NCBI GenBank assembly: GCA_014075255.1 | Contig: CP046178.1 | Coordinates: 1,089,616 to 1,153,615 of the forward strand | Direction: 5' to 3' | Length of the DNA stretch: 64,000 nucleotides | Origin: Gammaproteobacteria bacterium | GTDB taxonomy: Bacteria; Pseudomonadota; Gammaproteobacteria; UBA4575 | Part shown: piece by piece, positions 11,211-15,887 of the stretch | Numbering within the stretch: position 1 is the first letter of the stretch | How the letters are laid out: the number at the start of each line of letters is the position of its first letter | Notes under the pieces: model-generated | What the model was told of the DNA's origin: nothing | Seen by the model: the letters and a program-made list of their open reading frames with translations, nothing else | The model's database searches: none | Position numbers and translations under genes: made by a program

Positions 11211-12581
11211 ATGCCCAATATGGATAGCTCTCAAATAGGAATGGATCTCGAAGAACGGCAAATATATTCCGTCCTGCAACTCAATCGAGAAGTTAAACAA
11301 CTATTACAACAAAACTTTCCATTACTATGGGTAGAAGGCGAGCTCTCTAATGTGGCGCGTCCCGCTTCAGGACATATTTATTTCTCGCTAAAAGATCAGC
11401 AAGCACAAGTTCGTTGCGCGATGTTTCGCAAGGCAAATTTAGGCTTAGCCTTTCAACCTGAAAATGGCATGCAAGTATTAGTACGGGCACGAGTCGGTAT
11501 ATACGAGCCTCGAGGTGAATACCAACTCACCATCGAACATATGGAAGAAGCGGGTGTTGGTATTCTGCAACGCAGATATGAGGCATTAAAACAAAAACTC
11601 AATCAAGAAGGCCTGTTCGACCCAGACAATAAACAACCACTACCCTCTTATCCACATGCTGTAAGCATCGTAACCTCTGCAACTGGAGCCGCGATACGTG
11701 ACATTCTTAGCGTGCTACATCGTCGCTATCCCCTGCTTACTATTCGCATCTATGCCGTGCCGGTTCAAGGAAATAAATCGGCCGCTGCTATCGTAGACGC
11801 CATTCAAGAGATCAATAAACGTAAAGACGCTGATGTGGTGATTGTTTCTCGAGGAGGTGGCTCGATAGAAGATCTTTGGTCATTCAATGAAGAAGAAGTT
11901 GCACGTGCAATCTATTCCTCCAAAATCCCAATCGTCGCAGGCGTCGGCCACGAAGTAGATTTTACTATTGCCGATTTTGTTGCCGATGTGCGTGCCGCCA
12001 CACCCACTGCAGCAGCAGAACTTATTACTCCACATCAAGATGAACTGCTAGAAACATTTATACAATATGAAAATACTCTGCTTTGCTTGTTGCGCGATTC
12101 GATAAGCAATTTTCATCAAGCTGTTGACTGGATGACACAACGCTTAGAATCTTTACATCCCAAACAAATTATCCAACGCAAACAAGAATTCTTAATCGAA
12201 TTACAGCGACGCGCGCATAGTGCCGTTAAACTTAAGTTGTCAGACCGAGTAAATCTGCTAAGTAGATTATCACTCAGGTTTGAAAGCCATTCTCCCCATG
12301 CACGTGTAAGAGAAGCTAAAATTAAATTAATCGATCTCCACAAACAGATGCACCGAAGCATTCAGACCCATCTGCAACAAAAGCAACAAGATATACATGC
12401 TTTAGCTAGAACTCTGGATGCAGTCAGTCCATTGGGTACTTTGAATCGTGGCTATGCCATTGCCAGCCACCGGGCAAGTGGACAAATTTTGCACAATAGT
12501 AATCAGGTATCAAAAGATGACGAAATATCTATCCAAGTGGCCAAGGGGCATATTTTCGCTAAGGTTAAAGGTAAGCAATAA
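11211..12581 (+). CDS. xseA: exodeoxyribonuclease VII large subunit
   Basis: OB-fold N-terminus (LLWVEGELSNVARPASGHIYFSLKD) and ExoVII catalytic core (VSRGGGSIEDLWSFNEE). 456 aa. Confidence 0.9.
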   Translation: MPNMDSSQIGMDLEERQIYSVLQLNREVKQLLQQNFPLLWVEGELSNVARPASGHIYFSLKDQQAQVRCAMFRKANLGLAFQPENGMQVLVRARVGIYEPRGEYQLTIEHMEEAGVGILQRRYEALKQKLNQEGLFDPDNKQPLPSYPHAVSIVTSATGAAIRDILSVLHRRYPLLTIRIYAVPVQGNKSAAAIVDAIQEINKRKDADVVIVSRGGGSIEDLWSFNEEEVARAIYSSKIPIVAGVGHEVDFTIADFVADVRAATPTAAAELITPHQDELLETFIQYENTLLCLLRDSISNFHQAVDWMTQRLESLHPKQIIQRKQEFLIELQRRAHSAVKLKLSDRVNLLSRLSLRFESHSPHARVREAKIKLIDLHKQMHRSIQTHLQQKQQDIHALARTLDAVSPLGTLNRGYAIASHRASGQILHNSNQVSKDDEISIQVAKGHIFAKVKGKQ

Positions 12582-12692
12582 GCCATTCTTGACACATTTC
12601 AAGAAAATTTCAGCTTTATACCTATAACCATTGCTTGCCAGAAGCCTTCTTATCTGGCATAAAAGCGGGCTTCATTTTCACAAGAGTCTTCC

Positions 12693-13481
12693 ATGCCAGC
12701 TAAAAAAGTCAAAACCAAGAAAAAAGCCGCTCCTAAAAAGAAGGCTGCAGTAAAAAAAGCCGCACCTAAGAAAAAAGCAGCGGTCAAAAGAAAAGCTGCG
12801 CCTAAGAAAAAGGCTGCGGTTAAGAAAAAAGCTGCGCCCAAGAAAAAGGCTGCAGTCAAGAAAAAAGCCGCGCCTAAGAAAAAAACTGCAGCAAAGAAAG
12901 CTGCGCCTAAAAAGAAGGCTGCGGTTAAGAAAAAAGCTGCGCCTAAAGCACCACCAGCAGAAAAGAAACCTTCCAAAGCTGAGCTGAAAGAACAGAAGGC
13001 GCAAGCAGAAAGAGAAAAGAAAAAACAGAAAAGAATTGAATTGTTAAATAAACGTTCCCCAGTTGAATTGCCGGTTGAAGGTATCACGCCCTACACCCTA
13101 CATCGTGGTGAAAGCTACATGAGTGACGCGCAGCTAGAACATTTCCGCAATATATTATTGTGTTGGAAACAAGAATTAATTGATGAAGTTAAACGCACGG
13201 TCGATCAAATGAAAAATGACGCTAGTCAATTTGCTGATCCGGCCGATCGTGCTACGCAAGAAGAAGAATTTAGTTTAGAGCTCAGAACACGTGACCGTGA
13301 AAGTAAATTGATTAGAAAAATCAACCAGACGCTGTCAACTATCGATTCTGAAGACTATGGTTATTGCGAATCGTGTGGCATTGAAATAGGCATTAAACGT
13401 TTGGAAGCACGGCCAACTGCCACCTTATGCATTGACTGTAAGACCTTGCAAGAAATCAAGGAAAAACAAATATTTACCTGA
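12693..13481 (+). CDS. dksA: RNA polymerase-binding transcription factor DksA with N-terminal histone H1-like Lys/Ala/Pro repeat extension
   Basis: C-terminal 150 aa matches DksA: coiled-coil YMSDAQLEHFRNILLCWKQEL and the C4 zinc finger CESCGIEIGIKRLEARPTATLCIDC. The first 110 aa or so are KKAAPKKKAAV repeats. It lies upstream of gluQ as in E. coli. Confidence 0.8.
   Translation: MPAKKVKTKKKAAPKKKAAVKKAAPKKKAAVKRKAAPKKKAAVKKKAAPKKKAAVKKKAAPKKKTAAKKAAPKKKAAVKKKAAPKAPPAEKKPSKAELKEQKAQAEREKKKQKRIELLNKRSPVELPVEGITPYTLHRGESYMSDAQLEHFRNILLCWKQELIDEVKRTVDQMKNDASQFADPADRATQEEEFSLELRTRDRESKLIRKINQTLSTIDSEDYGYCESCGIEIGIKRLEARPTATLCIDCKTLQEIKEKQIFT
12720..12960 (+). repeat. tandem imperfect 33-36 bp coding repeats (about 7 units) encoding AAPKKKAAVKKK
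   Basis: Repetition of aaraaagc(t/c)gcgcctaagaaaaaggctgcggt is visible in the DNA. The antisense frames give spurious F/A/L-rich ORFs. Confidence 0.8.
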
Positions 13482-13566
13482 TATTTCTCAGAGAAAATTA
13501 AGTTAATTTTTTTGGGATGAGAGCCCTGAATAGTTAACCTAAACGTCTTACTAGTATAGTTAATTT

Positions 13567-14490
13567 GTGAAACAACAAAACTATATAGGTCGATTCGCCC
13601 CCTCTCCTTCCGGGCCATTACATTACGGTTCGTTAGTAGCAGCTACAGCAAGTTATTTGCAAGCAAAGTACAATAATGGAAAGTGGTTAGTTCGCATAGA
13701 AGATATCGACCCACCACGTGAAGTTGCCGGCGCTGCAAACGAAATACTTAAAACCCTTGAACACTTTCAGTTTGAGTGGGATCAAACACCACTCTATCAA
13801 TCGACTCGTCGTGAGCAATACCGCTCTGCAGTTAATAGTTTAATTCAACAAAACCAAGCTTATGCTTGTTCATGCTCGCGAAAAGACTTAGCCAATAATA
13901 TTCAGAAAAGTGAATTAGGAAAACGCTATCCAGGAACCTGTGCAAACAAACAGTTAAATACTCGTGAAACATCTCTGAATTTAAGACTGCGCACTAAAAA
14001 TGAAAATATTAATTTTCAGGACATCACTTATGGAAAATTAAGACACAATCTTTTGAAAGAGATTGGTGACATTATTATTTATCGTAAATTGGACCTGCCA
14101 AGCTATGCTTTAGCAGTAACAATAGATGATGCCTACCAAGGCATTACCGAAGTAGTGCGCGGCTATGATTTACTCGCCTTTACCCCAATACAAATATATC
14201 TTTGCCAACTGTTACAGCTACCTATACCGAAGTTTCTACATATCCCTATTATCCTCAATCAACAGGGACAAAAATTAAGCAAACAAACCGGCGCAGATGC
14301 TATCAGCAAGCAAAATTGTGGGAGCGTGTTAGTTCAGGCGCTGAAAGATTTAGGTCAACCTGTCCCAGAAAATCTTGAAAAAGAGTCCTCTGGGAATGAC
14401 GAGCTAGGACAAATATGGAATTGGGCAATTAAACACTGGAATGTAGATAACATTCCCAAAATCAAACAAGTTTATCCATCCCAAAACTAA
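13567..14490 (+). CDS. gluQ: glutamyl-Q tRNA(Asp) synthetase
   Basis: GRFAPSPSGPLHYGSLVAA class I HIGH-like motif and truncated GluRS catalytic domain. 307 aa. Conserved dksA-gluQ synteny. Confidence 0.85.
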   Translation: MKQQNYIGRFAPSPSGPLHYGSLVAATASYLQAKYNNGKWLVRIEDIDPPREVAGAANEILKTLEHFQFEWDQTPLYQSTRREQYRSAVNSLIQQNQAYACSCSRKDLANNIQKSELGKRYPGTCANKQLNTRETSLNLRLRTKNENINFQDITYGKLRHNLLKEIGDIIIYRKLDLPSYALAVTIDDAYQGITEVVRGYDLLAFTPIQIYLCQLLQLPIPKFLHIPIILNQQGQKLSKQTGADAISKQNCGSVLVQALKDLGQPVPENLEKESSGNDELGQIWNWAIKHWNVDNIPKIKQVYPSQN

Positions 14491-14545: not shown

Positions 14546-14773
14546 TTATTCATCGCCTCCACTTTCTTTGTTTTTAACCCAATCCCATGGCTCTTCTTTA
14601 CCCACCGCAAAAAAGATCCAGAAGTTGCCAATGATCATAATAATGAACATCAAAGCGGTAAGGATCGCCCAAACTGGCTCGCGGTTATGTTCGCCAATAT
14701 TGAGCCAATTCATAATTCCAAGGAACGCGACGGTCCATAACGCCATAACGCCTAATGCTTGTAAAGTACGCAT
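14546..14773 (-). CDS. small two-TM membrane protein, hypothetical
   Basis: 75 aa with two hydrophobic helices (LGVMALWTVAFLGIM, VWAILTALMFIIMIIGNFWIFFAV). Same strand as, and immediately downstream of, the reductase gene. I chose it over the overlapping plus-strand ORF. Confidence 0.35.
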   Translation of the reverse strand: MRTLQALGVMALWTVAFLGIMNWLNIGEHNREPVWAILTALMFIIMIIGNFWIFFAVGKEEPWDWVKNKESGGDE

Positions 14774-14807: not shown

Positions 14808-15887
14808 TTAACGCCCGCCAGGCATTGAACTCGCATCTAAAAACTTATCAAAGTATATATTCTCTTTATTCATACCTTGGTCAACCATGACATCAATTGC
14901 TGCATCGATCATCGGTGGAGGACCACATAAATAGCCCTGAGCTTCGTTCAAAGACAATTTACCAGTATCTACGTAAGCTTCCTTTAAATAGGTGGTCACA
15001 AACCCTGTTGCGCCCTGCCAGCCGCTTCCTTCTGGCTCTTCACTTAATACAGGAACGAACTCAAAGGAATAGTCTTTATTCCATTTTTTACCAATTTCTG
15101 CTAATTCGTCCATGCAGTATAAATCTTGCTGCGCACGTGCGCCAAATAGATATAAACAGTTTCGTTTCACTTGTTCCGCAGCAGAGCTTTCTAAAATGGC
15201 CTTAATAGCGCTCATACCACTGCCGCCTGCTACACACACCATCGTAGAATCTTCATCACGTCGAAAGAACTGTCCATAGGGACCTGTTACTTTAACAGTT
15301 TCGCCAACACGCTCTTCTGCGAATAGCCATTCAGTAAATTTACCGTTTGGCACTAAACGCACATAAAATGTAAATTCACCTGGATTCTCTTGCTTAGGGG
15401 CTTTTGCGTAAGAATAAGAACGTGGATCATCTAAAGCGCTAATCGCGACTTCAGAATACTGTCCAGCCATTCCTGAATGCTCGACTTTGCCTTCACACTT
15501 AACGACTAGCTCTTTAATGTCGTGCGTTAGGTTACGAGTACTTATGATTTGACCTTCGTATGAATTTAACGCTATTGCAGGCGCATCACTGAGCTCAACT
15601 TCAATTGCAACATCGGTTTTAAGTCGCGTTTGGCAAGCAAGAATCTTACCGCTCTTGAGTTGATCTTGATCTAGTACATAAGAAAAATCTGTTAAAGCTT
15701 TGATTTTTCCATTTTTAAGCGTGCACTGACAGGTGCTGCAACTACCCACACGACAATCGTGCGGCCACGGGACACCTGCTTCTAAAGCAGCTTTTAACAA
15801 GTTGTCACCGGCCTTTACGGTAATGGTATGCTCGCCACCATTAACGGTTGCTTGCCAGTCTTTATTACCGCCAAATAATCCAAACAT
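14808..15887 (-). CDS. 2Fe-2S ferredoxin / FAD-NAD(P)H oxidoreductase fusion (XylA/alkane-hydroxylase-reductase-like electron transfer component)
   Basis: N-terminal plant-type ferredoxin with Cys pattern CRVGSCSTCQC...C. FNR-like FAD motif RSYSYAKAP and NAD motif MVCVAGGSGMSAIKAIL. 359 aa. Confidence 0.75.
   Translation of the reverse strand: MFGLFGGNKDWQATVNGGEHTITVKAGDNLLKAALEAGVPWPHDCRVGSCSTCQCTLKNGKIKALTDFSYVLDQDQLKSGKILACQTRLKTDVAIEVELSDAPAIALNSYEGQIISTRNLTHDIKELVVKCEGKVEHSGMAGQYSEVAISALDDPRSYSYAKAPKQENPGEFTFYVRLVPNGKFTEWLFAEERVGETVKVTGPYGQFFRRDEDSTMVCVAGGSGMSAIKAILESSAAEQVKRNCLYLFGARAQQDLYCMDELAEIGKKWNKDYSFEFVPVLSEEPEGSGWQGATGFVTTYLKEAYVDTGKLSLNEAQGYLCGPPPMIDAAIDVMVDQGMNKENIYFDKFLDASSMPGGR

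Follow-up and report, generated by a model that had tools for sequence, protein, structure and literature searches.

A gammaproteobacterial DksA with a polycationic N-terminal tail

The DNA analysed here, called the window below, is a stretch of 64,000 nucleotides (nt) from a Gammaproteobacteria bacterium (GTDB lineage UBA4575; GenBank assembly GCA_014075255.1, contig CP046178.1, positions 1,089,616 to 1,153,615 of the forward strand). It carries a dksA gene in which the coding sequence for the RNA polymerase (RNAP) regulator DksA is preceded in frame by lysine- and alanine-rich repeats. The open reading frame (ORF), at 12693–13481 on the + strand, is intact in the ORF list, with an ATG start and 262 amino acids (aa) followed by a stop codon, and its product scores 166.1 bits against the NCBIfam model TIGR02420 (dksA; cutoff 115.5). 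The gene comprises the following features.

12693..13481, + strand: full dksA ORF, made up of tail, linker helix and DksA core (ORF list; TIGR02420 above cutoff)
12693..12974, + strand: polycationic tail, predicted to be disordered, aa 1–94 (composition, charge, AlphaFold)
12717..12946, + strand: imperfect tandem DNA repeat array, base period 18 bp, double unit 33–36 bp (Tandem Repeats Finder, TRF)
12975..13052, + strand: charged linker, predicted single alpha-helix, aa 95–120, SKAELKEQKAQAEREKKKQKRIELLN (AlphaFold predicted local distance difference test, pLDDT, 69–83)
13068..13472, + strand: DksA core, aa 126–260 (phmmer vs PDB 1TJL, 5VSW and 7KHE; E 8.6e-56)
13236..13253, + strand: coiled-coil tip motif DPADRA, with D182/D185/A187 equivalent to E. 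coli D71/D74/A76 (residue mapping)
13365..13439, + strand: C4 zinc finger CESC...CIDC, C225/C228/C246/C249 (Pfam zf-dskA_traR; residue mapping)

Core and tail of the protein

Residues 126–260 align without gaps to residues 15–149 of E. coli DksA at 64% identity (phmmer, E 8.6e-56; identity count). Both Pfam models of the family match, DksA_N (PF21157) over aa 147–217 (7e-31; 106.7 bits vs a cutoff of 27) and zf-dskA_traR (PF01258) over aa 221–251 (5e-12; 45.9 vs a cutoff of 24.9), and the score below cutoff for the enterobacterial equivalog NF008045 (206 vs 289) is expected because the orthologue is non-enteric. The four zinc-finger cysteines, C225, C228, C246 and C249, correspond to E. coli C114, C117, C135 and C138 and keep the CxxC-17-CxxC spacing, and the DxxDxA columns of the coiled-coil tip are invariant in the alignment of relatives. 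R202, K205, K209, R240 and K250, equivalent to E. coli R91, K94, K98, R129 and K139, are all conserved; we take the latter five to be the residues of guanosine tetraphosphate (ppGpp) site 2 with RNAP. E. coli R125 is likewise conserved in the core, which is acidic overall (isoelectric point, pI, 4.9). AlphaFold, run on a 16-sequence alignment, predicted coiled-coil helices at 145–179 and 183–218 and a C-terminal helix at 247–261. The core is a true DksA orthologue, and by homology the gene codes for the ordinary DksA of the organism, a ppGpp-partnered secondary-channel RNAP regulator. A regular-expression scan of the 64-kb window for a second DksA/TraR zinc finger found no convincing paralogue.

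Ahead of this core, aa 1–94 open with MPAKKVKTKKK and continue as six to seven double units of KKKAA[P/V]. Lysine, alanine and proline make up 43%, 29% and 10% of aa 1–111, respectively, and the tail has a net charge of +41.5 and a pI of 11.5. In the AlphaFold model, aa 1–86 have pLDDT <50 and no secondary structure. The linker helix that follows (aa 95–120) is kept in the closest relatives only (P0005, P0016, P0024, P0029 and P0015) and has no counterpart in E. coli DksA.

An earlier annotation made from the letters alone, hereafter the sequence-only reading, had described a complete DksA, with coiled coil and C4 finger, behind about seven imperfect in-frame repeats. The ORF, the hidden Markov models and the residue mapping bear out the first part of this description, and the seven occurrences of AAPK in the protein and the 6.6 copies reported by TRF agree with the second. 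That the repeats are coded by near-identical DNA units was overstated: TRF found periods of 18 and 36 bp, the 36-bp unit with 78% matches, a repeat search found 10 registers spaced 18 bp apart that are 60–82% identical to the reference copy, and no exact direct repeat is longer than 29 bp (12810 and 12915).

The likeness to histone H1 that had also been proposed stood in one respect. The tail shares with eukaryotic H1 C-terminal domains a composition dominated by K, A and P, predicted disorder and a highly basic character. Searched alone, however, it had no match in Pfam at E up to 10, gave only 7.5 bits (E = 4.4) against NF038053 (hist_H1_lk_Burk; cutoff 80) and left PF07382 (HC2) unmatched, and aa 1–99 contain six APKK but no [ST]PKK motif. 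With no profile match and no S/TPKK motif, "H1-like" describes compositional resemblance only. Many tailed DksA homologues do have a precomputed Pfam HC2 (PF07382) match in the tail; such matches are composition-driven.

Translation and conservation of the tail

Position 12693 is the sole in-frame ATG ahead of M143, and an in-frame stop lies 5' of the ORF at 12660. M143 itself (ESYMSDAQ) aligns with E. coli EEYMNEAQ, so the absence of an internal ATG between repeats and core is as the sequence-only reading had it. The region that joins the tail to M143 (aa 112–142) is conserved at the protein level and has no ATG. In-frame TTG codons occur at positions 117 and 126, neither with a Shine-Dalgarno-like sequence upstream. 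A promoter and terminator scan of 12450–13650 gave counts not above shuffled expectation and no promoter match on the + strand.

The tail is under selection at the protein level. Codon differences among the four 12-aa repeat units are 31 synonymous vs 3 non-synonymous, and it is therefore the peptide, not the DNA, that is conserved. Compared with the relative L083 (∼80% nt identity, 97% core protein identity), the sole indels are of 33, 3 and 6 nt. Orthologues from genomes of 40–68% guanine-plus-cytosine (GC) content (L001, L031, L029, L033, L046 and L047) have the same K/A/P/T tail composition in the same frame, and across orthologues the tail starts with a conserved M-[A/P/V]-x-K-K.

Two close relatives that appeared to lack a tail were rejected as such. 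In the 146-aa call P0031 the repeats are interrupted by a scaffold gap of 100 N (L081 760–1520), and the 183-aa call P0018 reflects a frameshift in a long-read contig of 3.46x coverage (L082 1010–1560), where an orphan 116-aa tail ORF lies just upstream of the frameshifted DksA.

An N-terminal extension of DksA has been demonstrated directly in Xanthomonas euvesicatoria, where the protein is 256 aa long and not 147 aa as annotated, according to a tandem mass spectrometry (MS/MS) peptide (AAPAAAKPAAKPVASK), mutagenesis of the GTG1 start codon and western blotting; besides full-length DksA, a processed variant was detected (PMC5559785). The paper is silent on the composition or function of the extension (PMC5559785).

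These data bear on the possibility that the architecture is an annotation or assembly artefact, with the tail untranslated or forming a separate small ORF and DksA starting internally. The short database calls P0031 and P0018 could be read in its favour, as could the T-poor nature of Lys/Ala-rich DNA, in which open frames come cheaply. A split ORF or frameshift of this kind was looked for and found only in those two calls, both of which are explained by the gap and the low-coverage frameshift described above. The dksA DNA of the window recurs at 100% identity in another two, independent NCBI assemblies, L085 (GCA_012263365.1, WLWG01002407.1) and L086 (GCA_011087705.1, JAAHTH010029618.1), which excludes an assembly artefact; the conserved, ATG-free aa 112–142, the protein-level selection and the experimental precedent in Xanthomonas (PMC5559785) argue in the same direction. 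We regard an artefact as scarcely credible. Given the sole upstream ATG, the synonymous excess, indels in multiples of three, the composition shared across GC contents, the artefactual nature of the short calls, the identical assemblies and the Xanthomonas precedent, it is close to certain that the architecture is real and that tail and DksA are translated as one polypeptide, as the sequence-only reading had maintained.

The protein is also represented by QMU61211.1, identical to the window DksA, carried by a contig of 2.65 Mb and found on 10 contigs in all. The L085 and L086 assemblies each consist of very many contigs. The identical gene in both indicates that the same strain has been sequenced more than once, possibly within host-associated or community samples.

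Distribution, length variation and gene neighbourhood

Nearly all of the best 120 matches to the full protein, a set biased by shared tail words, are DksA proteins of 220–340 aa with K/A-rich extensions. A HMMER search with the core only, against 1.84 billion cluster representatives and free of that bias, yielded 65 strictly tailed proteins and about a dozen near the threshold among the best 130 assessable matches, with tails of 47 to ∼300 aa. "About half tailed" among cluster representatives is to be taken qualitatively, because clustering at 50% identity combined with fast tail divergence inflates the number of tailed clusters.

Among species-representative genomes, a K/A-rich extension of at least 30 aa was present in 28 of the 80 DksA loci among the matches listed, a sample that is biased toward query-like cores, is no census and does not include the window genome or Xanthomonas. 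The fusion had been presented as unusual; it is in fact widespread in Gammaproteobacteria. Carriers include Alcanivorax limicola (extension of ∼330 aa), Alloalcanivorax balearicus and A. xenomutans (∼210 aa), whose DksA proteins reach 350–460 aa, and metagenome-assembled genomes (MAGs) assigned to Halioglobus, Thiotrichales and Ectothiorhodospiraceae. No tail was found in Marinobacter, Halomonas, Marinomonas, Kangiella, Halopseudomonas or Cellvibrio. A. limicola JB21 (L033 1948–3408), A. balearicus and A. xenomutans (L047, L055) are cultured hydrocarbon degraders, and their extensions are rich in K/A/P/T/S. A gammaproteobacterial-type DksA with a ∼180-aa A/K/P-rich tail, its core 66% identical to the query core, is also encoded in the bin "MAG: Pedobacter sp." (Bacteroidota; L026 2266–3408), where the contig probably represents contamination.

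Many gammaproteobacterial lineages inherit the tail, and its length changes rapidly. The nearest core neighbour of a tailed DksA was itself tailed in 20 of 28 cases vs 9.5 expected (0 of 2000 permutations reached this value) and untailed in the other 8, a pattern that points to vertical descent of the tail, interrupted by recurrent gains or losses. Extension length ranges from 75 to 141 aa among relatives with at least 93% core identity, a range to which short-read assembly of the repeats may add error; variation in length had been anticipated from the repeats. In the three assemblies that carry the window gene, by contrast, repeat number is the same. Lysine content remains 30–50% even in very diverged tails.

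Length variation and patchy presence would also fit a neutral origin, in which replication slippage produced a low-complexity expansion that has no function and is tolerated as the N-terminus points away from RNAP. The spread of 75–141 aa between proteins with at least 93% core identity and the many tail-less lineages favour this explanation, but it sits badly with the 31:3 excess of synonymous differences between units, with a composition and frame that stay constant over 40–68% GC, with the tracking of core phylogeny by tail presence and with the persistence of lysine in diverged tails. We consider a neutral expansion improbable, and both it and the artefact explanation are poorly supported.

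The genes on either side of dksA, both on the same strand, are as follows.

11211..12581, + strand: xseA (exodeoxyribonuclease VII large subunit), upstream of dksA (TIGR00237, 497 bits vs a cutoff of 180)
13567..14490, + strand: gluQRS (tRNA glutamyl-Q34 synthetase), directly downstream of dksA (TIGR03838, 335 bits vs a cutoff of 277)

The spacing between dksA and gluQRS is 85 bp, and the order xseA-dksA-gluQRS is shared by relatives (L081–L085, with xseA as neighbour). In E. coli, dksA and gluQ are adjacent too. Two antisense ORFs, 12650–13087 (−; 145 aa) and 12678–13004 (−; 108 aa), cross the repeats and give F/L/A/G-rich, mirror-image low-complexity translations. Such ORFs are by-products of the complementarity of Lys and Ala codons, and the Xanthomonas study proposed that an equivalent antisense gene, XCV2557, be removed from the annotation (PMC5559785).

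Further downstream, a hydrophobic 75-aa ORF without an NCBIfam match (14546–14773, −) lies between gluQRS and a ferredoxin-reductase-like gene, and the relatives L083 and L084 likewise have a 75-aa gene called there. The reductase-like ORF itself (14808–15887, −; 359 aa) combines 2Fe-2S ferredoxin, flavin adenine dinucleotide (FAD) and nicotinamide adenine dinucleotide (NAD)-binding reductase domains; it matches the electron-transfer components BenC, AntC and MmoC, all well below their cutoffs, and its domain content suggests an oxygenase reductase.

Possible roles of the tail and known counterparts

Taken as a whole, the best explanation in our view is an ordinary DksA carrying a disordered tail that tethers it to DNA. 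We hold this to be somewhat probable, a grading that reflects the weaker, functional part, for we judge the chances that DNA tethering is the tail's role to be evenly balanced. A tail with a charge of +41 would act as a sequence-non-specific binder of polyanions, most likely of DNA. Binding would retain DksA at the nucleoid, so that more of it is available close to transcribing or promoter-bound RNAP. Because the N-terminus of DksA lies outside the secondary channel in E. coli RNAP–DksA structures, a chain of ∼94 disordered residues could reach the DNA flanking RNAP even with the coiled coil inserted in the channel, and contact between tail and DNA could alter the destabilisation of open complexes by DksA and ppGpp.

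That the tail may bind DNA is suggested by analogy with other H1-like tails and with DdbA (SCO2075) of Streptomyces coelicolor, in which a 93-aa histone-H1-like N-domain with S/T-A/T-A-K-K repeats precedes a DksA-like C-domain (Aldridge et al. 2013; PMC3643593). The N-domain, but not the C-domain, shifts plasmid DNA in electrophoretic mobility shift assays (EMSA), and it binds and condenses DNA in vitro; mutant phenotypes concern nucleoid condensation, supercoiling and oxidative stress, and tail length varies among orthologues (PMC3643593).

Several points weigh against DNA tethering. No DNA-binding family profile matches the tail. Polycations bind RNA and polyphosphate (polyP) besides DNA. 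The tail is dispensable for core DksA function, since many close lineages (Marinobacter, Halomonas, Marinomonas, Kangiella, Halopseudomonas) do without it, and it may not persist on active DksA, given the processed variant in Xanthomonas. Lastly, our literature search, which covered few subscription journals, found no functional studies of a gammaproteobacterial DksA tail, for which translation alone has been shown; as descriptions of a tailed DksA it yielded just the re-annotated Xanthomonas protein and DdbA.

The breadth of polycation binding raises the alternative that the chief ligand of the tail is polyP or RNA, not DNA, with DksA recruited to polyP granules, coupled to polyP levels in starvation, or binding nascent rRNA or ribosomes. 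Pseudomonas AlgP offers a parallel, as this DNA-binding protein with KPAA repeats needs its H1-like tail both to localise to polyP granules and for the spacing of the granules (PMC9239181); regulation of polyP accumulation by DksA in E. coli is stated in the title of Gray 2019, which that paper cites, and nothing in the DksA tail points to sequence-specific DNA binding. Yet DdbA, the sole tested tail in the DksA family, binds DNA, as does AlgP itself, and we rate a polyP or RNA ligand as unlikely.

Less likely again is a regulatory or turnover module that is cleaved, bypassed by initiation at TTG 117 or 126, or autoinhibitory on the acidic core, leaving a ∼150-aa DksA as the active form. The processed protein found beside the full-length one in Xanthomonas (PMC5559785) would agree with this, as would the two in-frame TTG codons and the opposition between a core of pI 4.9 and a tail of +41. 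Neither codon has a Shine-Dalgarno-like sequence in front of it, however, and composition is kept over tails of 50–300 aa in many lineages, which favours a function of the tail itself over a disposable leader.

A broader version of the tethering proposal can be offered only tentatively, and we find it doubtful. A large, uncharted share of gammaproteobacterial DksA would be bound to the nucleoid or to polyP through a fast-evolving polycationic tail that arose independently of DdbA; DksA, the co-factor of the stringent response, would then be regulated spatially, leaving or joining DNA or polyP with changes in ionic conditions, polyP or supercoiling, and its dosage at promoters tuned by tail length. 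If DksA is indeed nucleoid- or polyP-bound in these bacteria, they would have an extra layer of ppGpp/DksA control that is absent from E. coli.

Almost all work on DksA concerns E. coli and a small number of pathogens, in which it is a free protein of ∼150 aa. In Xanthomonas, the oil degraders of the Alcanivorax group and many other marine and environmental Gammaproteobacteria, DksA has a polycationic tail of 50–330 residues, and models of how DksA finds RNAP, of how its concentration is set and of its links to the nucleoid and polyP may not transfer to them. Tailed dksA genes are often truncated or split by gene callers and assemblers, spurious antisense ORFs are called over their repeats, and the tail is mostly missed by tryptic proteomics. 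The existence of cultured carriers makes its role directly testable, and the group of tailed DksA proteins matters more than this single locus.

Set beside known systems, the tailed DksA at this locus does not represent a new type of system. The sequence-only reading knew of no characterised example, and two exist: DdbA, with its EMSA data (PMC3643593), and the long DksA of X. euvesicatoria (PMC5559785). The window protein and DdbA share an H1-like N-terminal domain, a DksA-type C-terminal domain and a tail whose length varies among orthologues. They differ in their repeat units (KKKAAP/KKKAAV vs S/T-A/T-A-K-K) and in descent, DdbA being a distant actinobacterial paralogue and the window protein a canonical, gluQRS-adjacent gammaproteobacterial orthologue. 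Orthologues of DdbA are reported in streptomycetes only, and SCO2075 matches E. coli DksA with a BLASTP value of 8e-11 (PMC3643593), vs 8.6e-56 for the window core, which makes orthology of the window protein with SCO2075 unlikely. Given a distant, streptomycete-specific protein on one side, a canonical orthologue on the other and different repeat units, the two fusions are most likely convergent.

Like the window protein, X. euvesicatoria DksA has an A/K/P-rich N-terminal extension of ∼110 aa that is overlapped by a spurious antisense gene; unlike it, the Xanthomonas gene belongs to a GC-rich genome and starts with GTG, and its extension looks more A/P-rich and less lysine-dense, as judged from the one peptide AAPAAAKPAAKPVASK. 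E. coli DksA (PDB 1TJL; RNAP complexes 5VSW, 5W1T, 7KHE and 7KHI) has 151 aa and no basic tail, whereas the window protein has 125 residues of tail and linker helix in place of its first 14.

Bacterial H1-like proteins with K/A/P repeats also include P. putida PhaF, Chlamydia Hc1/Hc2 and the Burkholderia H1-like proteins. With AlgP-type proteins the tail shares disordered Lys/Ala/Pro repeats and a high positive charge; in those proteins, unlike here, the repeats are C-terminal or make up the whole protein, and there is no RNAP-binding module. Garcia-Heras and colleagues, cited in PMC2919716, reportedly described, in PNAS in 2009, a CarD variant, from what we take to be Anaeromyxobacter, in which an H1-like domain replaces the HMGA AT-hooks. 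It too joins an RNAP-interacting factor to a polycationic H1-like region for non-specific DNA contact, but the module is unrelated (CarD_TRCF, which contacts the beta subunit and not the secondary channel) and its tail is C-terminal. The tailed DksA is thus an understudied variant with precedent in DdbA and Xanthomonas, and one of a large group in the Gammaproteobacteria that is uncharacterised and listed in databases plainly as DksA.

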